Shown: in pieces, positions 1 through 9,872 of the stretch
How positions within the stretch are numbered: the first letter of the stretch is position 1
How the letters are laid out: every line of letters starts with the position of its first letter
From: a virus
Taxonomy: Duplodnaviria; Heunggongvirae; Uroviricota; Caudoviricetes
Reading direction: 5' to 3' (one strand)
DNA: 9,872 nt
Virus record (IMG/VR): IMGVR_UViG_2663763428_000004
Translations under genes and position numbers: made by a program
The notes under the pieces: model-generated
Databases searched by the model: none
Told to the model about the DNA's origin: nothing
The model's input: only the letters and a program-made list of their open reading frames with translations

Positions 1-157
1 TAATCGTGTCCTCTGTGGTGGGTGTGGTGAATGTTATGTGTGGTTTGTGAGTAGTGTCCTGTGCATAGTCAGGTGTGTGTTTATGTAGAACTTAGGCGAC
101 CACCGAGATCTACACATTTATATTCGGCGGCAGCGTCAGATGTGTAGAAGAGAGTAG
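1..157. other. Non-biological library-adapter read-through at contig end (Illumina P5 sequence, 8-nt index-like spacer, degenerate Nextera read-1 / Tn5 mosaic-end sequence)
   Basis: 95-115 ggcgaccaccgagatctacac exactly matches the 3' part of the P5 adapter. 116-123 is an 8-nt index-like spacer. 124-157 tcggcggcagcgtcagatgtgtagaagagagtag matches TCGTCGGCAGCGTCAGATGTGTATAAGAGACAG apart from a few substitutions to G. 1-94 is GT-rich junk typical of reading past the adapter. Confidence 0.8.
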
Positions 158-693
158 GTAATACCCAAATCCTTGCATCTTTTCGATATTTCCTCATCGA
201 AGAAATACATTACTGTATTTGAAATAATGGGAGAAGAAGGTGCTCCAACACTTAGGCGTAACGGGCTATTTCTTCTTAACTTCCAGAAGAAAAGATTTTT
301 AAGAACAAAGATATCAGTATCAGTTAGTTCAACGCCATAATCTTTTAAGACAGATAAAAGATTATGGGGTTTGATACTCATAAAAAAGTTTTTAAAATCC
401 ATTTTAAGCAAATAATCATTATTACAATGCATTAACGCATTAGATCTAATACTTTTATCGGCTTCATAAGCGAAAGCATTTTCATGAACTTTCAAATTAG
501 CCAACATATGATTGATTACTACCTTCTGTAAGGCTTTAACTTGCCTAGCTGGTTGTGCAATTAATCTATATCCATTACCATTTCTTTTGGCGATAGGATA
601 AATTTTATATCTGCGTGGAATAGTAACAATATACCTTTTAGCCTCTTCTTCGCTAAGAAAAAGACCTTTTGAAATATAACTTAGCAACTCCAT
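158..693 (-). CDS. Retron-type reverse transcriptase, 3'-truncated fragment (N-terminal part through motif B; contig ends just before the expected YxDD box)
   Basis: ORF-track entry 136..708. Retron-RT blocks read directly: YIVTIPRRYKIYPIAKRNGNGYRLIAQPARQVKALQ (compare Ec86 RIYTVEKKG..RTIYQPSRELKALQ), motif A LKMDFKNFF, motif B LSVGAPSSPIISN. Preferred start is the ATG at 693-691, preceded by GGAGG; the track start at 708 is a GTG. The last ~7 codons and the stop at 136-157 are adapter-derived. Confidence 0.85.
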
Positions 694-694
694 T

Positions 695-1681
695 CTAAGC
701 CCCTCCACGCACGATATTGATTTGATTTAGAGCATTTTTCCTTTTTTTTGCAGTCTCGTCCATATCTTTAGCATCCATACTTAAGTAAGATTGTCGGATT
801 GCAACCTTAATATTCATAGAATCCTTTATTTTACCACTAGCACTGATACCAAATTTAAGTTTACTCTCTCTATGCCCTCGGGAATAGAAGTAGTCTGTAC
901 CACTGTAAGATAATGATGAGGTTAATTTCATCTTTTCAAGCAAATAAAGTAAACGAGTTATTATTTTTTGTGGCACATCTATATCCATACAGTATAGTGC
1001 CCACTCTATTTCGCTTTTCTTGATTGGTTCTGATAAAAGGATTATTTCGTAAATCAATATAGCTAGGTGCCCAGTATTTTCAGGGTTATATCGCTCCGTT
1101 TTTTTTACACGTTTTAATCTAGAATGAATATCATGGTAGATAAGCTCAACCTCATCATATTTCATACGATCCGATTTTGGCCATGGATAAACTGATACTG
1201 AGGCCTCATCTATTTTTTTAAGATACTCCAAAGGGCCTAAATATATAAAAGAAGATCTAGCAGGAATATTTTTTCGTTCATTTCCCTCAATCTCCTCAAA
1301 TGGTGCGACTACATGCAATTTTTGAGCTAGAGACTTCCTATTAACAAATAATCCAAGCTCAACTAACGAACCTGCACTTTCTAAACAGATAACAACTAAT
1401 GTTGAAATATTTGCAATATCATCTTCAAAGCTCATTAGATCTGAATATGCCCCCTCTCTGAAGTAGTCATGGAAGTTCTCAGCTAAAATAAGAGAATCTG
1501 ACAATTCAGGTTTGTGGCCTGCTACATAAGTAAATATGTGGTCTCGTACACTCATTGGAGTGGAATTTATCGGCCCACCACAAACAAAAATAATAGGAGG
1601 CATGAACTGAACAGTGAAATTTGAATATTTCAAATCTCCAAACTGCTCTTGTAATGCATTCATATATGCAGAATCACTCAC
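695..1681 (-). CDS. Retron effector candidate with nucleoside 2-deoxyribosyltransferase-like (NDT-like) N-terminal domain, RcaT/Ec86-effector-like
   Basis: 328-aa ORF immediately upstream of the RT on the same strand (stop TAG 697-695, RT ATG 693). N-terminal IIFVCGGP followed by ESAGSLVELG, which resembles the NDT catalytic-glutamate motif (compare DVGLGMELGY). AT-rich like the RT. Start is uncertain: GTG at 1681 per the track, or ATG at 1663. Confidence 0.7.
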   Translation of the reverse strand: MSDSAYMNALQEQFGDLKYSNFTVQFMPPIIFVCGGPINSTPMSVRDHIFTYVAGHKPELSDSLILAENFHDYFREGAYSDLMSFEDDIANISTLVVICLESAGSLVELGLFVNRKSLAQKLHVVAPFEEIEGNERKNIPARSSFIYLGPLEYLKKIDEASVSVYPWPKSDRMKYDEVELIYHDIHSRLKRVKKTERYNPENTGHLAILIYEIILLSEPIKKSEIEWALYCMDIDVPQKIITRLLYLLEKMKLTSSLSYSGTDYFYSRGHRESKLKFGISASGKIKDSMNIKVAIRQSYLSMDAKDMDETAKKRKNALNQINIVRGGA

Positions 1682-1689
1682 CCTTGTGA

Positions 1690-1905
1690 CCCCCTACTCC
1701 AAAAGAAAAGGTGGCTAACCAGCCACCTTCGACCCCTTTACCTAAAGGATGCGCTTTAGACTTTCAGCAAGATCCTGAATGGAACGCAGTGGCATGAAGG
1801 ATCTTGCTGAAAGTGCTAAAGCGCAACCCTAAATGTCCACAATAAATTAGTGTCTGGCGAAACGCCCGACAAGGATAAACCTGTTATCCCGCGCGTAAAG
1901 GTAGG
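1690..1905 (-). ncRNA. Candidate retron msr-msd non-coding RNA (structure-based guess; boundaries approximate)
   Basis: Non-coding stretch directly upstream of the effector and RT. Interrupted 26-bp hairpin at 1751-1824 (perfect 16-bp core 1761-1776 / 1798-1813, 21-nt loop). Further hairpins at 1708-1729, 1857-1867 and around 1872-1888. Possible minus-strand promoter: -35 TTGAAA (plus 1931-1936), -10 TATCCT (plus 1909-1914). No a1/a2 repeat pair or branching G identified. Confidence 0.35.
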
Positions 1906-2261
1906 GTTAGGATAGCAAAAGATGCGAGATTTTCAATAAGTAAGCGTACTGGCTGCCAGCAACCACCTAAACCATTGACATTTAAACAAAAATAAATCTA
2001 ACAATTGAAAGCAATACCTTATTGAATACAGCATTCTTATATCTCTCTTGATATCGCAACATCACAATTATCACCGTTAGTGCGGGCAGCCCCGCACGCC
2101 TGCCCGCTTCGCTTAACAGACTGGTTTTCATGCACCTCATTAATCGTCTCAGAAGCCAGCACACAAGGGTTTTCTCGTCAAAAATGGTGCATAAGACTCA
2201 TGCGTTTTCATGCGCCATAGACATGCACTCATGCGCTCTCATGTCAGCCAGGAAAAGGGGG

Positions 2262-2290
2262 TAAAAAATCCCGGTACTGGACCGGGATTA
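2262..2290 (-). terminator. Rho-independent terminator ending the sid-psu-ogr operon
   Basis: Stem tcccggt (2269-2275) / accggga (2281-2287), 5-nt loop, A-run 2263-2268 on plus strand giving a U6 tract after the stem on the minus strand; about 20 nt downstream of the ogr stop. Confidence 0.6.
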
Positions 2291-2308
2291 CGTGGGCGTT
2301 CTTTCTAA

Positions 2309-2581
2309 TCAGACAGGAATCTGCTGACGGCTTGACAGTTTTGACGCGGAGCCATAGCGATTGAGCGTTTTCTGTTGTTTTTCCGGGGATTGTGCTTTGT
2401 CTGATAGCTGTTCATTGCGCCGGGGTTTCATGATTATCTTATCCACACTCTCCAGTGCCGTAAATGTGCAGGAACATTCCAGATTCTGGCACTGATACCA
2501 CGAGCGTTTAACTGACGGAGCTTCATAGGCTGCTGTTCTGGCGTGTGCAACTGTACCGCATTCCGGACATTTAAGTGCCAT
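2309..2581 (-). CDS. ogr: Ogr/Delta-family zinc-finger late-gene transcriptional activator (single Ogr-like domain)
   Basis: MALKCPECGTVAHARTAAYEAPSVKRSWYQCQNLECSCTFTALESV matches the P2 Ogr C-x2-C...C-x4-C block (compare HCPLCQHAAHARTSRY..RYHQCQNVNCSATF as I recall it). Preferred start is ATG 2581-2579 with AGGAG 8 nt upstream; the track start at 2590 is a GTG. Confidence 0.85.
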   Translation of the reverse strand: MALKCPECGTVAHARTAAYEAPSVKRSWYQCQNLECSCTFTALESVDKIIMKPRRNEQLSDKAQSPEKQQKTLNRYGSASKLSSRQQIPV

Positions 2582-2586
2582 TAATA

Positions 2587-3138
2587 TCACTCCTGTATAT
2601 CGTTAATGTCATTCAGGCGTTGCTGAAAACGCAGATGTTGTGCCGGGGTGTAAGAACCCTGGCAATCACGAATCATCCCGGGGTCAGGCATCAAACCGGA
2701 TTCATCCAGGATCTCACGATAATCCCCGGCAATTTCAGGCGGTGTTATTGCCAGCTGGCGAACCAGAGCACTGCGTAATATACGGGACGCAACGTCAACC
2801 CCTCCGCGCCCCTTCAGGAACGGAGCCAGTGCAGATGTCAGGGCTGCCCCATTCGCCTGCATAAAATTGCTGAGAGCGGCTTCTGTGCAGGCCTCCATCA
2901 GTAAATGCTGCGAGTAAATGCATTCGCGCGCAGCACAGTTAATTTGCCATTTCAGCACATCCAGACGTTCCCGCAGTAATTCGAGCTGTCGGGCATAATC
3001 TGCTGGTTTTTCTGTGGCAGCGAGGAGAGATGTTATCTGTTGTTCAACGGCTTTTCGGCTCTCATTATGTCCGGCCCACAGAATACGGGCATTCCGAAAA
3101 CTGGTAAGTGCCTGGTCAGGCGTGCCTCGGGCCGTCAT
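2587..3138 (-). CDS. psu: Psu-like polarity suppression protein (Rho antagonist / capsid decoration protein of P4-type satellites)
   Basis: 183 aa. Blocks KWQINCAARECIYSQ, FMQANGAALTSALAPFL and YTPAQ resemble P4 Psu as I recall it. AGGAG upstream of ATG 3138; ATGA overlap with the preceding gene. Confidence 0.7.
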   Translation of the reverse strand: MTARGTPDQALTSFRNARILWAGHNESRKAVEQQITSLLAATEKPADYARQLELLRERLDVLKWQINCAARECIYSQHLLMEACTEAALSNFMQANGAALTSALAPFLKGRGGVDVASRILRSALVRQLAITPPEIAGDYREILDESGLMPDPGMIRDCQGSYTPAQHLRFQQRLNDINDIQE

Positions 3139-3878
3139 ACTGCTTTCTCCTTCTCAGCAAGTTCCTGACGAACCTTAATTTTATGCATAGCTGCCGGAGA
3201 GAGTTGATTACTGAAATCCAGACGCGCCGCATAATCCGGGGCAACTCCCGCCAGTTTAAACACCGGGTCCTGCTCAGGCATCGCATCGTTAGCCAGAGCC
3301 GGTCTGGTGATATGTTTATGAATAAAGTCTTTCAGCACTGTGTCCGGGTCATTAACTGAATTCACCACACCCACAACGGCACTGGCTTCCCGGCCCATTG
3401 TGGATTTAAGCAGGCTCAGCGTCTGAATAAGCGCTTTTCCATGCGACTGCATAAAATCCTCCCAGATTTGTTTTGCGCGAATATCCACAAGAATGTTATG
3501 CGCGTGGATATACTTTCCGGCTAATTCTGCAGCTTTCTGCGGCAAAAGTGCATTTTCGCTTTCCTGAGCCGCCAGCAGCTCATCAAAATCCTCAAGCGTT
3601 TCTCGTCCCAGCGCAATTTCCGTGCGCAGTTTTTTCATTTCCTTTGAGACCACGCCCTGACTTTCACGAAACAGCGTGCGCCACTCCTCATTCAGTGTGT
3701 TCGTCGTGGCTTCCATTTCAGCGCGACGCTGGCGGATTGTCGCAATATTATCCGCTGCCGCTTTCTGCTGACGACGTGCTTCAAGCCATGCGTTTCTGGC
3801 TGTGTTCATGGTTTCCAGTGCCCGCTGCGTTACAGCCGGAAAAGTGGAAAGGTTGTTATTCACTGCGGTGTTGTTCAT
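3135..3878 (-). CDS. sid: Sid-like capsid size-determination (external scaffold) protein, Sid/Psu family
   Basis: 247 aa, first gene after the iteron region, AGGAG before ATG 3878, translationally coupled to psu. Predicted helical and charged-residue rich. WRTLFRESQGVVSKE and FMQSHGKALIQTL resemble Sid/Psu-family blocks. Assignment rests mainly on synteny with psu and ogr. Confidence 0.55.
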   Translation of the reverse strand: MNNTAVNNNLSTFPAVTQRALETMNTARNAWLEARRQQKAAADNIATIRQRRAEMEATTNTLNEEWRTLFRESQGVVSKEMKKLRTEIALGRETLEDFDELLAAQESENALLPQKAAELAGKYIHAHNILVDIRAKQIWEDFMQSHGKALIQTLSLLKSTMGREASAVVGVVNSVNDPDTVLKDFIHKHITRPALANDAMPEQDPVFKLAGVAPDYAARLDFSNQLSPAAMHKIKVRQELAEKEKAV

Positions 3879-3912
3879 GACTTCTCCTGTCGGGTTGGTT
3901 CGTTACGTCAAT

Positions 3913-3968
3913 TGTGTCGTGGCTGACACAAGCACACTATCGGTGCTCAGTGTGTGGTGGCTGGCACA
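3913..3968 (-). promoter_or_regulatory. Two TGT-N12-ACA dyads (candidate Ogr/Delta-dependent late promoter upstream of sid)
   Basis: tgtgtcgtggctgacaca at 3913-3930 and tgtgtggtggctggcaca at 3951-3968, each TGT-N12-ACA; the distal one is centred about 81 nt upstream of the sid ATG. Confidence 0.45.
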
Positions 3969-4054
3969 ACGGACGCTTGCGGTTATTCAGACGTGGCTAT
4001 GAAAGCCAGCCAGATAAAAATGCCCTCTGTTTCAGTCTGCTTTATGTCCCTGAT

Positions 4055-4252
4055 GCGGTGGAACAGGTGAAACATGTGTTACAGCTTTGTTTTATAAGGC
4101 ATTTATATACACTGCACCGGTGGAACATCGCGGGTAACAAGGTGGAACAGCGGATTGGCTGGCGTTACATCTGTTCCACCTCACTATTTCAGAAGGTGGA
4201 ACAGGTTCAGCCCTGTAAAATACGGTTGTTCCACCTGTTTCACCTGTTACCC
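4055..4252. repeat. Iteron cluster (candidate crr/ori-like replication element bound by the adjacent primase)
   Basis: GGTGGAACAG/T at 4057-4066, 4119-4128, 4141-4150, 4195-4204; inverted (C/T)TGTTCCACC at 4171-4180 and 4226-4235; variants GTGAAACA 4067-4074, TGTTTCACC 4236-4244, GGGTAACA/TGTTACCC 4132-4139 and 4245-4252. Lies in the non-coding gap just after the primase stop. Confidence 0.6.
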
Positions 4253-4278
4253 TTAATAAATAAGACTCACGCAAAGCC

Positions 4279-6951
4279 TTAACCCGGCACCTCGCTGTTG
4301 AAGACATAGAGCCTGCGGGGATTCATCTCTGGCGGGCGAATGGTTGTCTGGAGTTTGCCATCAGTGGAGGGCAGCAGGTATCCACGATCTGCGCACAGAC
4401 GCGCCACCTTGCGCGGGTCAAATCCCCTGCAGATTTCTTTCCAGCCGGACGGCATGACATAGAACGTAGTGACAGCTTCCGTGCCCTGCGCGGTACTGCC
4501 TTTCTCCACCCTGCGCCAGCCCACCATATTGCCGGGGCGGTTGCGCTCGTCATACCAGTCTGCAAAGCGGCTGTACTGATTCGCGGTAAAGAAACTGCGA
4601 ACCTGCTCCAGTGCGGCGATATCTTCCTGATTGGCGGTGTGCCCGCGATCTTTCAGCCATGCGTTCAGGCAGACGCGGGTTGCCCGCAGTGCTTCACCCT
4701 CAGGCCAGCCGGTGATACCCAGACGGGTTGCCAGTTCACCTGCCATCGCCACCAGAGCAAAGCGGTTCACAGCCCGGCCCACCTGATTGCCTGCATCTTT
4801 CGGAGTCAGGGCGGCAGCATATTCCTTCATCAGCGATTTTGCCTGTGCCGTTAGTCCGTTAAGATCAGCGGTCAGTGCTTTCAGCCACTCCCGGAACGGC
4901 GAACCGTAGTAGCAGGACGTGGCCCATTCAAGATGCTCTGCCAGAGCCTTGCCGCTGTCGAAGCCGTGCAGCTCCTCAAAAACGCCAAACTTCCCGGAAT
5001 CGCTGGGGATCTGGATCATCCTGACTTCCATCCCGGCAAAAGTACGCTCACCGGCCTTTGCCGCATGTTCGGTCAGAGACAACTCGCCAGTTGAAAAGAA
5101 CAACAGGCGCCAATGCTTACGGGTACGCAGCTCACCGTCCGTACCGGCACGGCCCTTGCCCTGACCGTTTGCCAGCATGTAGGCGATATTGCCTGCCTCG
5201 CGTCCGTCAACTTCCCGGATCTCATCAAGCATCATGGCGGCATCGTTGCGGCGGCTGGCGCATCCCTCCAGCGCGTTGCCGGTGGCCCGCCATGTCTGCC
5301 AGTAGTCAGGCCCGCCGCAGACGGAGGTTGCCGCTTTCATGGTGGTGGTCTTACCGTCTGTCGATTCCCCTTTGAGGTGGTAGCCGCCGCCGTCCATACC
5401 AACCAGCCGTAACAGTGGTGCAGCAAAGGCCAGGCTGACAGCAAATGCCACGCGGGAGTTGCCGGTACAGTAGCGGGATACATGCTCCCGCCATTCCTCT
5501 GTTGTGCCCGACACGCGGAAATCACGCCCCTGCACGGAAGTGGTCTGGAGAATGACACCCTCTGCACCTTCACCGCTGACCTCATCCTGCAGGACGTAAA
5601 CCTGACCATGCCAGCCAGTACGACTGACGCAGGTCACGCGGCGTTCCGGTTTACACAGTGAGATATATTCCATCAGGCGTGCGCGTGCCTCACCGGTGGT
5701 GCTGATATAAGACAGCCCGTTAACCAGCAATACCCGGCGCAGTTCCTCACCACTGCCGCTCAGCATTTCCATCGGCATCGCCCAGCGGCGACACTCACCC
5801 CACGTATCTTCCCATTCCAGCAGTCGTCCGAAGTTACCGCCATCGGCATCGCAGGTGATTGCCGTCACGCGCAGCGGGCTGCATATTTTGACGTTCTGGA
5901 TCTCCGTCTCACCGTTGCGCTGTACCTGCTTTTCATACCAGAGATATTCCTGGGTAAGACGGAACCCGTGCGGCAGTTGCGTGCGGCCCTCCCCGCACAG
6001 CACCAGACCGTTACGAAAGGCTTCACGGGCGCGGGTAATACCGTGCTCCCGATGGAAGTCATTCCAGTCGGCCTTAATCTCTCCCGGTGGCAGCGTCATC
6101 CAGCCGCCAACAGCTTTTGCCGCCCGTTCAGCAAAGGCTCTGCCGGGATTCTCACCCCCGTCCTGAAAATCGTTATCACCGGCGATGATAATTTTTACCT
6201 CAGGCCAGCGTGCCCGCAGCGACTGCGCCACATTGGGCAGGTTGCCCGCAGATATGGCAGCCACTACGCATCCGGCAGTGAGCTGACTTACCGTCAGCGC
6301 CGTAGCGTAACCTTCGGTAATCACCACCTGTACCGGTGGTTCAGACGGTAACGGGCTGAGCGACACAAACGCGCCTTTCATCGTGCTGCCGGGCAGTATG
6401 CTTTTTTCACCCGTCGGGGCGATAAGCTGTGCACCAGTCACGGCTCCGGTGTTGGTCGTGAGTGGTAACAGCAGGGAACCGGCAGGAAAATCCTTACCGC
6501 TGATATGCTGCACGCTTCCGGTCAGAGAGGCCGGGTATCCGGCGAACCCTTTTCCTGTCAGATAGGCGCTTTCTCCCGTGTGGCTCTCTTTCATCAGCGC
6601 CGCCACGGTAAGACCCATGTCGCGTTTAGGGGCTTTTTTTCTGGCAGGCTTAACAGGCAGTTCCTGCACATCCGGCACATTAAGCACCTGCGCCACCTCC
6701 TGCGCAGCCTTTCTGACGCTGTAACCGGTTACGAGCTTAACCAGATCCAGACCGTCACCATTGCCACACTGGCTGCAGATCCACGTCCCGCGCCCGTCAA
6801 GGTCATCAAGGCGAAAACGATCCTTGCCCCCACATTTCGGGCAGGGACCGTGCCTGCCGTTTTCAGGTACATCAATACGCAGCATCTGGAGAATAACGGG
6901 CCATTTCCCCCGTGCGGCGGCTGAAATCTGCGTAACCGTCTGTATTGTCAT
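4279..6951 (-). CDS. Satellite primase-helicase, P4 alpha-like (N-terminal zinc ribbon, TOPRIM, C-terminal P-loop NTPase)
   Basis: 890 aa. CPKCGG..(x19)..CSQCG zinc ribbon (coded about 6766-6843); TOPRIM-like VVITEGYATA...IIIAGDND; Walker A GESTDGKTT. ATG 6951 with GGGGGA upstream; ATGA overlap with the upstream gene. Confidence 0.9.
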   Translation of the reverse strand: MTIQTVTQISAAARGKWPVILQMLRIDVPENGRHGPCPKCGGKDRFRLDDLDGRGTWICSQCGNGDGLDLVKLVTGYSVRKAAQEVAQVLNVPDVQELPVKPARKKAPKRDMGLTVAALMKESHTGESAYLTGKGFAGYPASLTGSVQHISGKDFPAGSLLLPLTTNTGAVTGAQLIAPTGEKSILPGSTMKGAFVSLSPLPSEPPVQVVITEGYATALTVSQLTAGCVVAAISAGNLPNVAQSLRARWPEVKIIIAGDNDFQDGGENPGRAFAERAAKAVGGWMTLPPGEIKADWNDFHREHGITRAREAFRNGLVLCGEGRTQLPHGFRLTQEYLWYEKQVQRNGETEIQNVKICSPLRVTAITCDADGGNFGRLLEWEDTWGECRRWAMPMEMLSGSGEELRRVLLVNGLSYISTTGEARARLMEYISLCKPERRVTCVSRTGWHGQVYVLQDEVSGEGAEGVILQTTSVQGRDFRVSGTTEEWREHVSRYCTGNSRVAFAVSLAFAAPLLRLVGMDGGGYHLKGESTDGKTTTMKAATSVCGGPDYWQTWRATGNALEGCASRRNDAAMMLDEIREVDGREAGNIAYMLANGQGKGRAGTDGELRTRKHWRLLFFSTGELSLTEHAAKAGERTFAGMEVRMIQIPSDSGKFGVFEELHGFDSGKALAEHLEWATSCYYGSPFREWLKALTADLNGLTAQAKSLMKEYAAALTPKDAGNQVGRAVNRFALVAMAGELATRLGITGWPEGEALRATRVCLNAWLKDRGHTANQEDIAALEQVRSFFTANQYSRFADWYDERNRPGNMVGWRRVEKGSTAQGTEAVTTFYVMPSGWKEICRGFDPRKVARLCADRGYLLPSTDGKLQTTIRPPEMNPRRLYVFNSEVPG

Positions 6952-7331
6952 ACTTCCCCCTGATACAACGTCACACCGGTACTGCAGAAGTCATCAAAGG
7001 CCGCCGGAAGCGTGCGGTACATCTCCGCCATCACTTCACAGCCGCGCGCGGTCAGTACCGGCGGCGCGGTCAGCAGTGACGGCTCCAGCATGTCAGTCAG
7101 CAGTGCCAGCGCGGCAGCGGCGCCCTGTGCTTCGCCGTACTCGTTAATCAGTACGCACTCGATATGCAGCGCAATGGCCATTTCAATACGCTCCACCGTC
7201 AGGCTGTGCGGACCATACTGATCACTGCCAGTTTCGTTCAGCATTTTCTGCCGCCATGCTGAAGCAATAGCCCGCCGGTAAAGCGCGGTGGTCATTTCTG
7301 CCGGGAAAATGGAAACCTGCGGCTGGTTCAT
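6948..7331 (-). CDS. Hypothetical protein (127 aa), translationally coupled upstream of the primase
   Basis: ATG at 7331; ATGA overlaps at both ends; GC content like the satellite core. No motif recognised. Confidence 0.6.
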   Translation of the reverse strand: MNQPQVSIFPAEMTTALYRRAIASAWRQKMLNETGSDQYGPHSLTVERIEMAIALHIECVLINEYGEAQGAAAALALLTDMLEPSLLTAPPVLTARGCEVMAEMYRTLPAAFDDFCSTGVTLYQGEV

Positions 7332-7612
7332 CTGGCACCTCCTTCAATCAGTGCGCAGCTGTGTGCAATATCCGTCAAATCTGCCAGCAGGTACTCCATC
7401 AGCGCGGCGACACCATGCGCACAGCCAGCGTCCAGTGCTCCGGCCTGAGACGGGTATTCAGAAAAGAGAAGCTGGAGCATGTCGCAGGCATTTCTTGCGC
7501 GGGTCAGTTTTCCGAAACTGTCCTCTGACAACCCATAGGCAAAAGCACCGGTATTGTGTTTTTCAGGCAAAGTGTGGCCCTGAGCACCGTTGTGCCCGTT
7601 TGAAATATTCAT
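7328..7612 (-). CDS. Hypothetical protein (94 aa)
   Basis: ATG 7612 with GGAG upstream; ATGA overlap with the next gene. No motif recognised. Its position is analogous to the small regulators upstream of alpha in P4, but that is positional only. Confidence 0.5.
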   Translation of the reverse strand: MNISNGHNGAQGHTLPEKHNTGAFAYGLSEDSFGKLTRARNACDMLQLLFSEYPSQAGALDAGCAHGVAALMEYLLADLTDIAHSCALIEGGAR

Positions 7613-7643
7613 CGTGGATTACTCCGTTTTCAGCGGTATTTTG

Positions 7644-8003
7644 TCAGAGAAACTTTGAATAGTGACCGTCGTCAGGCTCAGCAGAACGCCGTATGCTACG
7701 CTCCCGCCAGCGGATAAATAGCACAGACGGATGCAGTGTCAGCGGGCCGGAACCACTACCGCCAGCAGGAGCTGGTGCAGGCTTCAAGAGCGGTACATCA
7801 AACAGGCGCGTATACCGCTGTTCAAACCATGCCAGAGGGCAGGAAGAAAGCTGGTTGTCGCTGTCATGACGTATCAGCACTTCACAGCTGAATTCAGGAT
7901 TAACCAGCGCCACAGAGGGCGAGGCTTCTATTAATCGGATAATCGTGACCGTCCAGCCACGTTCATGCTGCCAGCGTTCGCCGGGGTGCGGATAATTACG
8001 CAT
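7644..8003 (-). CDS. Hypothetical protein (~119 aa)
   Basis: Track ORF 7644..8033 begins at a TTG; I prefer the ATG at 8003-8001, which is preceded by GGAGGTG. No motif recognised. Confidence 0.5.
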   Translation of the reverse strand: MRNYPHPGERWQHERGWTVTIIRLIEASPSVALVNPEFSCEVLIRHDSDNQLSSCPLAWFEQRYTRLFDVPLLKPAPAPAGGSGSGPLTLHPSVLFIRWRERSIRRSAEPDDGHYSKFL

Positions 8004-8172
8004 GTTCACCTCCGCAGGGAATGCGCCCGGCAAAGCTCAGTACATAGTCCGGGGCAAGTCTGCGCCGCGCTGACCGCTCGTTATCTGCGGTGATCCTTAA
8101 CATCACAGGACGGGCATTGCGTTGACTGCGGTTGATCGCCGCAAATAACCAGGTACACTTCTGTTTAGCCAT
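7996..8172 (-). CDS. Small basic hypothetical protein (58 aa), first gene of the leftward operon
   Basis: ATG at 8172-8170 preceded by GAGG; this is the 3' part of track ORF 7996..8730, whose upstream portion crosses the promoter and operator region and is not credible as coding. Confidence 0.35.
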   Translation of the reverse strand: MAKQKCTWLFAAINRSQRNARPVMLRITADNERSARRRLAPDYVLSFAGRIPCGGEHA

Positions 8173-8247
8173 CTTCGTTACCTCATTTAGCGGATTGGTC
8201 AGAAGCCCGGTTAGTGTTGCTGCACTGTCGGGCTTCGCACTCACAAG

Positions 8248-8340
8248 GTGAATCGCACCTTTAATTTTAAAGCTACCCTTAAGTGAATCGCACTTCAAGC
8301 TTTTTATTATCATTTTTTTTGCATATACTGAATCGCACCT
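8248..8340. promoter_or_regulatory. Three direct repeats (G/C)TGAATCGCAC(C/T)T in the divergent control region, with a candidate plus-strand promoter
   Basis: Repeats at 8248-8260, 8283-8295 and 8328-8340; -10-like TATACT at 8324-8329 abuts the third repeat; weak -35 TTTTTA at 8301-8306. Confidence 0.45.
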
Positions 8341-8359
8341 AACGCGAGGAGATCCAGTA

Positions 8360-8545
8360 ATGGCAACGAGTTCAACTAACAACAAGTCGCAGCAACTTAA
8401 TGCTCGTTTCCCACATGATGTAGTTGCAGAATTAGAAAGCAACCTTGAAGATGGAGAAACGAAAGCGCAATTCATTGTTACGGCTGTAAAAGGCGAGATT
8501 AAACGCCGACAGCGCAGGAAAAATAAGCCAGAGCAAGGTAGTTGA
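8360..8545 (+). CDS. Small ribbon-helix-helix (CopG/Arc-like) DNA-binding protein, candidate repressor
   Basis: 61 aa; GAGGAG 8 nt before the ATG; N-terminal ARFPHDVVAELESNL...AQFIVTAVKGEI fits the RHH strand-helix-helix pattern; basic C-terminal tail. No toxin partner downstream. Confidence 0.55.
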   Translation: MATSSTNNKSQQLNARFPHDVVAELESNLEDGETKAQFIVTAVKGEIKRRQRRKNKPEQGS

Positions 8546-8608
8546 ATAGAGAAGCCAACAGACGTTCTCTCTGTTTCCATGTTAATTTCAGTAAGCGACA
8601 ATATTTTT

Positions 8609-8642
8609 AAGCCCACAAATTCATTATGTCGGGCTTTTTTAT
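8609..8642 (+). terminator. Intrinsic terminator after the RHH gene
   Basis: Stem 8609-8617 / 8627-8636 with one bulge, 9-nt loop, then T6; sits between the convergent RHH and alpA genes. Confidence 0.5.
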
Positions 8643-8872
8643 TAGTGATTTTCATATCGCTCACCACGAGAGGCATATATTTGCTCTTGAATCCAGTGAT
8701 CCACTTCGCTTTCAACAAATGAAATTGCACGAGTTCCTATTTTCACCGGACGGGGAAATGTATTGTTTGCAAGCTGTTTGTAAAGCCATGCCTTGCTACG
8801 CTGAACGCGTCTTAAGACCTCTTTTGCTGAGATAAGAGTCTGATTATCTGAAAAGCTGTTTGCATATTCCAT
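8642..8872 (-). CDS. alpA: AlpA/Vis-family phage transcriptional regulator / excisionase-like protein
   Basis: LISAKEVLRRVQRSKAWLYKQLANNTFPRPVKIGTRAISFVESEVDHWI matches the AlpA helix-turn-helix pattern. Preferred start is ATG 8872 with GGAG upstream; the track start at 8917 is a GTG. Confidence 0.8.
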   Translation of the reverse strand: MEYANSFSDNQTLISAKEVLRRVQRSKAWLYKQLANNTFPRPVKIGTRAISFVESEVDHWIQEQIYASRGERYENH

Positions 8873-9248
8873 CTTGTTACTCCGTGTTCTACTTAAGTTC
8901 ACGGTGACTTTAAACACTGGGAAAAAGTGATTCTAGTGATAATGGAATCTATTAAGACAAATATTGATTCTATTGAAAAACAATAATCTCCACTGAAAAA
9001 AGAAGTAATATTCATATGAAAGAACACGGAGAGAAGGAAATGCACAAAAAAAACAAAATCAATAGAATTCATATGGATAGGATGGAAAATCAAAAAATCA
9101 TATGTCAAAAGGTATTATTGCATTTTAACGATTCATATTACCTAGGAATTAGCACAGTATTACACCATATTACATCGTATTACCCCCTATAGCCCGTTAG
9201 AGCCTCTTGTGGCCCTTCTATTGAGAGATAGCCAGAAAATTAATAAAT

Positions 9249-9851
9249 TTACTCTCCGTATTTTATAATGTCTTTCCCAAGCTTTATTTTCTTATAAAAC
9301 GTAGCTTTTTTAACCCCTTTCATTAGAATCTCATTCTCATTACAAAAAGAAACAATATCATTATATATAACACTATTATCGCTATAACTTACCTTTCCAT
9401 GTCTCTTAAGCAATTCAATTAGTAAATAAATTAATTTACAACTATAATTATCCTCATCATCTTTTCTGTACTGCCCTCTACCATTACTCCTTAATTTTTT
9501 ACCAACTTCATATAATTCACTTCCTCCTAACGTCATTAGAATATCACTCCAATCTTTATTTTTTACCTGTTGTCGTAATGCGTTCTCAATTCTCTCCTTA
9601 ATCTCCACAGGTACAATACCTTCCCTCTGAAAGATATAAGCGGCAGTTAATAATAAGTTCGCCTCCACTTTTTGCGTGGCGGATACGTTTTTATATTCAT
9701 TAATTAATTGTAGATTTCTGGTTATTGCCTTTCTTAATCTAATAACCTCTTTTAATTGAACCTCAGTCAATTCATCATTTTCGGTATCATAGTCAAAACC
9801 ATTCATAGCAAGCGCCACTTCGTGTGGCGTTATGTAAGTTACCCTATTAAA
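9249..9851 (-). CDS. AT-rich hypothetical protein, probably 5'-truncated by the contig end
   Basis: Track ORF 9249..9818 starts at a GTG. Neither that GTG nor the first ATG (9806) has a Shine-Dalgarno sequence, and the frame stays open up to the adapter at 9854. No recognisable motif. Confidence 0.55.
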   Translation of the reverse strand, partial: FNRVTYITPHEVALAMNGFDYDTENDELTEVQLKEVIRLRKAITRNLQLINEYKNVSATQKVEANLLLTAAYIFQREGIVPVEIKERIENALRQQVKNKDWSDILMTLGGSELYEVGKKLRSNGRGQYRKDDEDNYSCKLIYLLIELLKRHGKVSYSDNSVIYNDIVSFCNENEILMKGVKKATFYKKIKLGKDIIKYGE

Positions 9852-9853
9852 AT

Positions 9854-9872
9854 CTGTCTCTTATCAACATCT
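9854..9872. other. Non-biological Nextera mosaic-end remnant at contig end
   Basis: ctgtctcttatcaacatct matches CTGTCTCTTATACACATCT at 17 of 19 positions. Confidence 0.75.

Follow-up and report, generated by a model that had tools for sequence, protein, structure and literature searches.

The DUF927 domain marks the family of replication proteins that includes Cch and the Rep of SaPIbov1, and the Reps of SaPIs are self-loading helicases (PMC7581432, PMC9371898), which recognise iterons via a C-terminal winged helix (PMC9371898, PMC7581432). These iterons, 6-12 in number, are located directly downstream of rep and are arranged around a central AT-rich stretch (PMC7581432, PMC9371898), and Reps of the SaPI type require just one such downstream ori (PMC9371898). 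The primases of SaPIbov1 and SaPI5 are of the AEP type (PMC7581432). A comparable arrangement is found in the PICIs of E. coli, where two iteron sets surround an AT-rich stretch 3' of pri-rep, and a pri-rep-ori fragment from EcCICFT073 drives the replication of a plasmid (PMC6092414). In this experimentally validated PICI origin (positions 3997-4284 of locus L058, from E. coli CFT073) the words TGTCTACC and GGTAGACA are placed around the AT-rich stretch, while the EcCICFT073 protein belongs to a helicase family other than DUF927 (D5_N/DUF5906/Pox_D5).

The satellite P4 carries two clusters of short repeats, ori and crr, which are 4.5 kb apart. The crr directly follows the alpha gene, and ori is found 81 bp upstream of the dyad of the sid promoter, TGTGTCAGGGCTGGCACA, which in turn is positioned 80 bp upstream of the sid ATG. 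Initiators of theta plasmids (RepA/pi/TrfA type) are not helicases and rely on DnaA and DnaB/DnaC. Here, we describe an iteron array that follows the primase-helicase gene of a satellite prophage, contained in a stretch of DNA of 9872 bp (the window, to which all positions refer unless another locus is named), and that is very probably the replication origin of this element, as judged from its sequence and that of its relatives.

The Satellite Prophage

Bases 152-9853 of the window match many complete E. coli chromosomes at 100% identity. In one of these, NZ_CP028578.2, the stretch lies within a prophage of ~12 kb adjoining tRNA-Leu, in which the genes are arranged in the order integrase, small regulators, an Icd-like gene, two unknown genes and DUF5375, followed by a 'TOPRIM and DUF927' protein, a sid-like gene, psu, ogr/delta and a retron St85 system. 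The satellite genes all read from the minus strand of the window, in which Psu, Ogr_Delta and DUF5375 were found by Pfam. The prophage is a P4-like satellite, since its sid-like, psu, ogr/delta and DUF5375 genes together with the defence hotspot are as in P4-like satellites; it does not match the gene set of PICIs, namely an alpA-controlled unidirectional operon and capsid-redirection/terS genes in the absence of sid, psu and delta. The element also codes for small helix-turn-helix proteins. Of 5,426 complete E. coli genomes, 331 carry a satellite of this group at ≥90% identity.

Both ends of the window (1-151 and 9854-9872) are foreign to the E. coli sequence. Bases ~94-155 are presumably an Illumina P5 sequence with index and Nextera read-1 adapter, with a few errors, and the last 19 bases, CTGTCTCTTATCAACATCT, we take to be the Nextera mosaic end, so that the window has the appearance of one tagmented fragment, or one read, with the adapters still on. 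In the defence hotspot past ogr/delta, a system of the retron St85 family occupies 136-1681, with the effector at 695-1681 and a reverse transcriptase interrupted by the start of the window; a search of the whole window against Rfam returned no family at threshold, retron msr/msd families included. The sequence GGCGAGGCGGGGAAAGCAC, presumably the 19-nt cohesive end of P2 and P4, is absent from the window at up to three mismatches. It would be expected between ogr/delta and the hotspot (1681-2309), and the packaging site of the satellite may differ from that of P4. A further set of repeats is located at 8249-8340, where TGAATCGCACYT occurs three times as direct copies with 35 and 45 bp spacing. 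These copies belong to the regulatory region that separates the Icd-like gene from the divergent YlcI/YnfO-like gene, and could serve the early operon as operator or immunity repeats.

Layout of the Iteron Array

The word TGTTCCACC is present in six exact copies on both strands, namely at 4057, 4119, 4141 and 4195 on the minus strand and at 4172 and 4227 on the plus strand. When up to one mismatch is allowed, the number of matches in the 9872-bp window rises to eight, the two additional copies being TGTTTCACC at 4066 (minus strand) and 4236 (plus strand). All eight are confined to 4057-4244; by chance, 1.8 one-mismatch matches to TGTTCCACC are expected per whole window. Furthermore, no 9-mer reached more than three non-overlapping copies per 200 bp in 500 first-order Markov resamples of the window, and the best 9-mer outside the cluster has three copies in the window. 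Three degenerate copies (4075-4083, 4131-4139 and 4245-4253), with three mismatches each, were recognised solely by alignment with the full repeats of relatives. Together with these, the array, a putative ori, spans 4057-4253 and comprises 11 repeat positions and an AT-rich stretch. It starts 27 bp past the stop codon of the primase gene (4279-4281, minus strand).

Between this stop codon and the first iteron lies a TCTTAT box (4260-4265, minus strand), which is invariant in 12 of 12 lineages of a multiple alignment (A2), while the flanking bases vary. It is followed by a proximal triple tandem array (4227-4253, plus strand) with a 9-bp period, composed of TGTTCCACC, TGTTTCACC and TGTTACCCT and reading GGGTAACA-GGTGAAACA-GGTGGAACA in the direction of the primase gene, which aligns with three tandem repeats in each of the 12 lineages of A2. 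The next iteron (4195-4203, minus strand) is a single exact copy, inverted relative to the proximal triple array, whose position is kept at ~+77 from the stop codon in relatives; a second single exact copy (4172-4180, plus strand) has the same orientation as the triple array. Then come three inverted iterons spaced ~10-12 bp apart (4149-4119, minus strand), of which those at 4141-4149 and 4119-4127 are exact and the intervening one at 4131-4139, CGGGTAACA, is degenerate. The AT-rich stretch (4084-4112), a candidate unwinding element, separates this trio from the distal triple tandem array (4057-4083, minus strand). The latter again has a 9-bp period, is inverted with respect to the proximal array and reads GGTGGAACA, GGTGAAACA, TGTGTTACA on the plus strand; the two outer triple arrays form an imperfect inverted repeat.

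The GC content of the region reaches its minimum, 0.23, over the 30 bp of 4080-4109, and an AT-rich minimum is found at the equivalent place in most relatives. A conserved stretch of alignment A2 containing ATCAA falls inside the AT-rich stretch. An IHF site, which this motif of the relatives had suggested, is not claimed here, since the window copy AAACAAAGCTGTA fits the consensus poorly.

The stretch that carries the array is non-coding. No CDS is annotated over it in the identical RefSeq record, and the open reading frames that overlap it, 3914-4282 on the plus strand and 4092-4307 on the minus strand (122 and 71 aa), have no counterpart in 12 related loci. The first-pass annotation, which was based on the window sequence, had described a dense bidirectional iteron cluster in non-coding DNA directly after the primase gene and had considered both reading frames likely to be spurious, and the analysis bears this out. 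Its count of at least six core copies is matched by the six exact ones, but of the several one-mismatch variants that it mentioned there are two, both TGTTTCACC.

The Adjacent Primase-Helicase

The gene in front of the array (4279-6951, minus strand) encodes a primase-helicase of 890 aa, as assigned from Pfam, similarity to P4 alpha and matches to PDB sequences. The protein contains a Zn-ribbon (aa 32-68), a Toprim domain (aa 209-304), a DUF927 helicase domain (aa 330-612), and a C-terminal helical linker with a winged helix. Residues 5-316, which cover the Zn-ribbon and Toprim domains, share 38% identity with P4 alpha, and the similarity stops there. Past aa 316, P4 alpha continues with D5_N, DUF5906 and Pox_D5, whereas the window protein continues with DUF927 according to Pfam. 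Indeed, residues 415-640 match the PDB sequences of the SaPIbov1 replication initiator (8tch, E 8e-15) and of the SCCmec helicase Cch (5dgk, E 2e-13). By its domain content the 890-aa protein is a chimera of a P4-alpha-like primase and a DUF927 helicase of the SaPIbov1 Rep/Cch type.

The coding region of the predicted winged helix, the proposed reader of the iterons (aa 791-890), occupies 4282-4581 on the minus strand, with the codon of Lys866 at 4354-4356. An AlphaFold model of aa 661-890 reached a pLDDT of 86. The full-length model is poor in the DUF927 core (pLDDT 25-40) and is unusable there, so that the fold search was carried out with the C-terminal 230 aa. The fold of this part matches those of SaPIbov1 Rep, Cch and the oriT-binding winged helix of TcpK. 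The origin-binding domain of P4 (1ka8) is not among the PDB sequence or fold matches. When the primase was searched against phage records by tblastn, none of the deposited phages or satellites proved to have this protein; the closest match was partial, at 37% identity.

Conserved Layout and Changing Repeat Words

Protein homologues are numerous in Enterobacterales (57-100% identity), and from an alignment of 21 of them 55 genome, 80 metagenome and 60 IMG/VR loci were fetched. The same array layout behind the same gene is found in ~190 related Enterobacterales loci. The downstream sequence was long enough for evaluation in 50 genome loci. A cluster of 6-15 repeats is found inside the first ~250 bp after the stop codon in 46 of them and ~1.15 kb downstream, behind an insertion, in three, and it is missing from one, whose primase gene is frameshifted. 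The three displaced clusters belong to L039, L047 and L056, which had initially been scored as loci without a cluster; they carry 10-11 copies of GTGGGAACA at ~7800-8060, ~1.15 kb instead of ~30 bp past the primase stop, so something is inserted between gene and origin in these elements. The metagenome and IMG/VR sets added 139 loci, of which 130 have three or more exact copies that start within 130 bp of the stop codon, and in those inspected among the remaining nine the array is present with more heterogeneous copies. Across the 12 lineages of the alignment the layout is kept position by position with respect to order, orientation and spacing. The internal repeats occur in both orientations, and their number varies slightly by lineage.

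By contrast with this conserved scaffold, the repeat word differs by lineage. At least nine words are found: GGTGGAACA in the window, and in other lineages GGTGTAACA, GGGGTAACA, TGGGTAACA, CTGGTAACA or GTGGTAACA, GAGGTAACA, GCGGTTACA, GTGGATACA, GTGGGAACA and TGTAGTACA. Within one locus all copies change together. A kept scaffold with a word that changes in concert is expected of sites that are read by a co-evolving, element-encoded protein and not by a conserved host factor.

Three loci (L050, L051 and L197) encode a protein that matches residues 324-888 only, that is, DUF927 and the winged helix, and the Toprim part was not found in these loci by tblastn. An array of the same kind, made of GGTGTAACA or GGTGGAACA, is kept in them, indicating that the unit of helicase and origin exists without a fused primase, too. 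Two elements of the family were observed in each of three genomes, those of Pantoea stewartii (L004 and L046), Pantoea leporis (L013 and L052) and Enterobacter intestinihominis (L043 and L012). In all three the two elements carry different words, which fits with selection against cross-talk between co-resident satellites.

Covariation of Residue 866 with the Repeat Word

For 41 proteins, which were grouped by base 2 of the associated 9-mer into G (n=20) and T/A/C (n=21), residue 866 is the sole column of ~900 in the alignment that splits the two groups without error, being Lys in 20 and Arg in 21 proteins, with the Lys and Arg classes defined after viewing the alignment; the next-best column makes four errors. 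In the predicted structure, residue 866 is placed in the loop between the presumed recognition helix (846-856) and the first strand of the wing (869-871). In a tree of aa 330-790 the Lys lineages arise at least four times, and one Xenorhabdus locus with GGTGTAACA and Lys is nested among four loci of ~96% identity with CTGGTAACA and Arg. Two of the loci with a displaced cluster, L039 and L047, have an intact gene and carry Arg866 next to GTGGGAACA, as the rule predicts, while the frameshifted L056 was left out of this scoring.

In the 139 further loci, which mostly come from lineages already represented in the training set, G is found at base 2 in 75 of 75 Lys loci, and T or A in the Arg loci that have three or more exact copies (n=52), with the exception of the TGTAGTACA lineage; this lineage has Arg, and its word is not alignable to the other words. 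Four metagenome loci that are 97-98% identical to the window (L071, L074, L076 and L077) combine Met866 with GGTGGAACA, and three of them have only four exact copies. Seven close pairs that differ in their word were compared, and in five of them the density of substitutions peaks in aa 857-890; the pair formed by the window and L006 is an exception, with more substitutions in residues 1-320.

No column in aa 324-890 splits the GGTGGAACA from the GGTGTAACA lineages, so that base 5 (G/T) either is without a found determinant or is tolerated. When the window is compared with its 91%-identical GGTGTAACA relatives, most substitutions fall into aa 1-200. These N-terminal differences were rejected as the determinant of GGTGGAACA versus GGTGTAACA, since they merely reflect the tight clade of the window's relatives. 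The covariation of residue 866 with base 2 supports a direct reading of the repeats by the primase-helicase.

Comparison with P4, SaPI/PICI and Plasmid Origins

Upstream of the sid-like gene two TGT-N12-ACA dyads are seen, TGTGTCGTGGCTGACACA at 3913-3930 and TGTGTGGTGGCTGGCACA at 3951-3968, and the window contains one other such dyad, at 2552. The distal dyad TGTGTGGTGGCTGGCACA is identical to the P4 sid promoter dyad at 15 of 18 positions and is located 81 bp upstream of the sid-like ATG, with the array starting 89 bp beyond. The dyads at 3913-3968 are probably an Ogr/Delta-activated late promoter. In P4 the primase and sid operons are divergent, whereas they are co-directional in the window, so that the positions 'after the primase' and 'upstream of sid' coincide here. 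Being placed right behind the initiator gene and also ~90 bp upstream of the late promoter of sid, this one cluster fills the positions of both the ori and the crr of P4, a satellite of the same kind.

The words of the two elements are nearly the same, TGTTCACC in P4 and TGTTCCACC in the window, the 9-mer corresponding to one inserted base. Tandem copies are 9-11 bp apart, and the P4 ori likewise has three tandem copies and then one inverted copy. However, the exact octamer TGTTCACC is absent from the cluster, also when one mismatch without gaps is allowed, and has one copy in the window, at 8003. The helicase and origin-binding parts differ as well, with D5_N/DUF5906/Pox_D5 (1ka8) in P4 and DUF927 with a TcpK-like winged helix in the window. 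With a different word, a different binding domain and one cluster instead of two, the array is no P4 ori or crr in the strict sense. P4 alpha, the Pri-Rep of PICIs and the DUF927 protein represent three types of initiator with similar TGT..ACC-type words.

The likeness to SaPI and PICI origins is found at the level of organization. By sequence and fold, the initiator belongs to the family of self-loading hexameric Rep helicases with a C-terminal winged helix; ori is located directly 3' of the initiator gene, with a gap of 27 bp in the window; and 6-12 short iterons occur in both orientations, with an AT-rich stretch between opposed sets. On the other hand, the iterons of the window are 9 bp long and those of SaPIs and PICIs 5-6 bp, the AT-rich stretch is off-centre with three repeats on one side and eight on the other in contrast to its central position in SaPIs, and a Zn-ribbon/Toprim primase of the DnaG type is joined to the helicase in one protein. 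Unlike a PICI, the host element is a P4-like satellite with sid, psu and delta. By analogy, arrays of short repeats, an element-encoded winged-helix initiator and an AT-rich unwinding element would also be shared with the iteron origins of theta plasmids, from which the window differs in that helicase and primase are parts of the initiator itself and DnaA boxes are not enriched.

The first-pass annotation had likened the cluster to the iterons bound by P4 alpha at ori and crr. This likeness stands for the first 316 aa of the protein, but not for the helicase and origin-binding parts, the exact octamer or the number of clusters, although the P4 word TGTTCACC had been given correctly. The alignment to P4 ori/crr that it had envisaged was not obtained: with positions 3880-4300 as the query, blastn (word 11) returned nothing from a set of 50,697 phage records, P4 among them. 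Its proposal that the cluster is a cis-acting replication element of the satellite, read by the adjacent primase, gains strong comparative support from the conservation of the array, the concerted change of the word and the covariation of the winged-helix residue.

Proposed Mode of Initiation and Alternative Functions

Given the repeats with their conserved layout and concerted change between lineages, the family and fold of the protein and the covariation of residue 866, the cluster is with high probability the replication origin of the P4-like satellite prophage. We infer that binding, melting, loading and replication proceed as at SaPI and PICI origins. Upon expression of the early operon of the satellite, the 890-aa primase-helicase would be made, and its C-terminal winged helix would bind the 9-bp repeats at eleven sites, with inverted triple arrays at both ends. 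Hexamers of DUF927, an MCM-like AAA+ domain, would then form on the array and open up the AT-rich stretch of 30 bp; they would load themselves, with no need for a separate loader. Eventually, the fused Toprim domain would make the primers, and the host polymerase would copy the excised circle.

The repeats could instead act mainly in transcription or insulation, with protein bound to them blocking read-through from the primase operon into sid-psu-delta or controlling the late promoter, or as copy-number or incompatibility sites (handcuffing). In a scan of 3800-4400 for sigma-70 promoters and intrinsic terminators nothing was predicted, which leaves the primase gene and sid on the same strand with no predicted terminator between them. 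Furthermore, the array is ~90 bp upstream of the Ogr/Delta-type dyads at 3913-3968, and different words in co-resident elements of one genome are what incompatibility sites would be expected to have. However, the cluster keeps its form in the three loci where ~1.15 kb separates it from the primase gene, and many relatives without a detectable downstream sid still keep the array. Regulatory and incompatibility roles are moreover usual for an iteron origin and compatible with it, and thus no alternatives to it. As the main function such a role is unlikely, while a regulatory or insulating role as a side function is possible.

Quite improbable, too, is a role confined to that of a crr-like enhancer, in which the initiator binds the cluster but replication starts elsewhere. 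P4 needs both ori and crr, the position after the primase is exactly that of the P4 crr, and the context of sid, psu, delta and DUF5375 is P4-like. Nevertheless, a second cluster of the word (≤1 mismatch to TGTTYCACC) is absent from the 21.7-kb region that holds the whole prophage. The cluster has its own AT-rich stretch and also occupies the place of the P4 ori, ~90 bp upstream of the sid promoter dyad, and for Reps of the SaPI type one downstream ori is enough (PMC9371898).

There is very little probability that the repeats are read not by the primase-helicase but by a host protein, for instance DnaA, or by a different protein of the satellite. TGTTCCACC is two mismatches away from the DnaA-box consensus TTWTNCACA, and the small helix-turn-helix proteins of the element could provide another reader. 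Matches to the DnaA box are, however, at chance level in the window (22 found against 19.7 expected), with one in the region, and a word that changes between close Enterobacterales fits poorly with a conserved host reader. Against any other reader argue the covariation of the word with a residue of the adjacent primase-helicase and the fact that the array follows the gene of this protein in elements of otherwise different gene content. Finally, coding and chance or assembly artefact, as suggested by the two mechanical reading frames over the array (122 and 71 aa) and by the adapter remnants at the window ends, are excluded by the 100% identity of the stretch in many complete E. coli genomes, the absence of an annotated CDS, the lack of counterparts of the reading frames in relatives, and copy numbers far above the expectation and the Markov resamples.

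Returning to the cluster as an origin, a wider proposal can be made tentatively, although we give it clearly less than an even chance. The family may represent a natural set of at least nine mutually orthogonal pairs of initiator and origin, in which a few residues of the loop and wing that follow the recognition helix (aa 857-880) set the specificity for the 5' half of the repeat, with Lys/Arg866 as a switch for base 2. The diversification would be driven by co-resident satellites that avoid cross-initiation or incompatibility, and the single array would combine the roles of ori and crr.

Implications

A description of this origin was not found in the searchable literature. The array almost certainly belongs, judging by its sequence features, to the well-known kind of iteron origins, in a version for which no description was found. 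It locates the putative origin of a group of P4-like satellites that is widespread in E. coli and across Enterobacterales, and whose replication module is a hybrid of a P4 primase and a self-loading helicase of the SaPI type. One gene and ~230 bp make up a small, self-contained candidate replicon. For annotation, the reading frames at 3914-4282 (plus strand) and 4092-4307 (minus strand) should not be called. The lineage-specific words, together with a candidate specificity residue, provide a simple system in which the evolution of the recognition between initiator and origin can be followed, and these words may explain how several satellites coexist in one cell.
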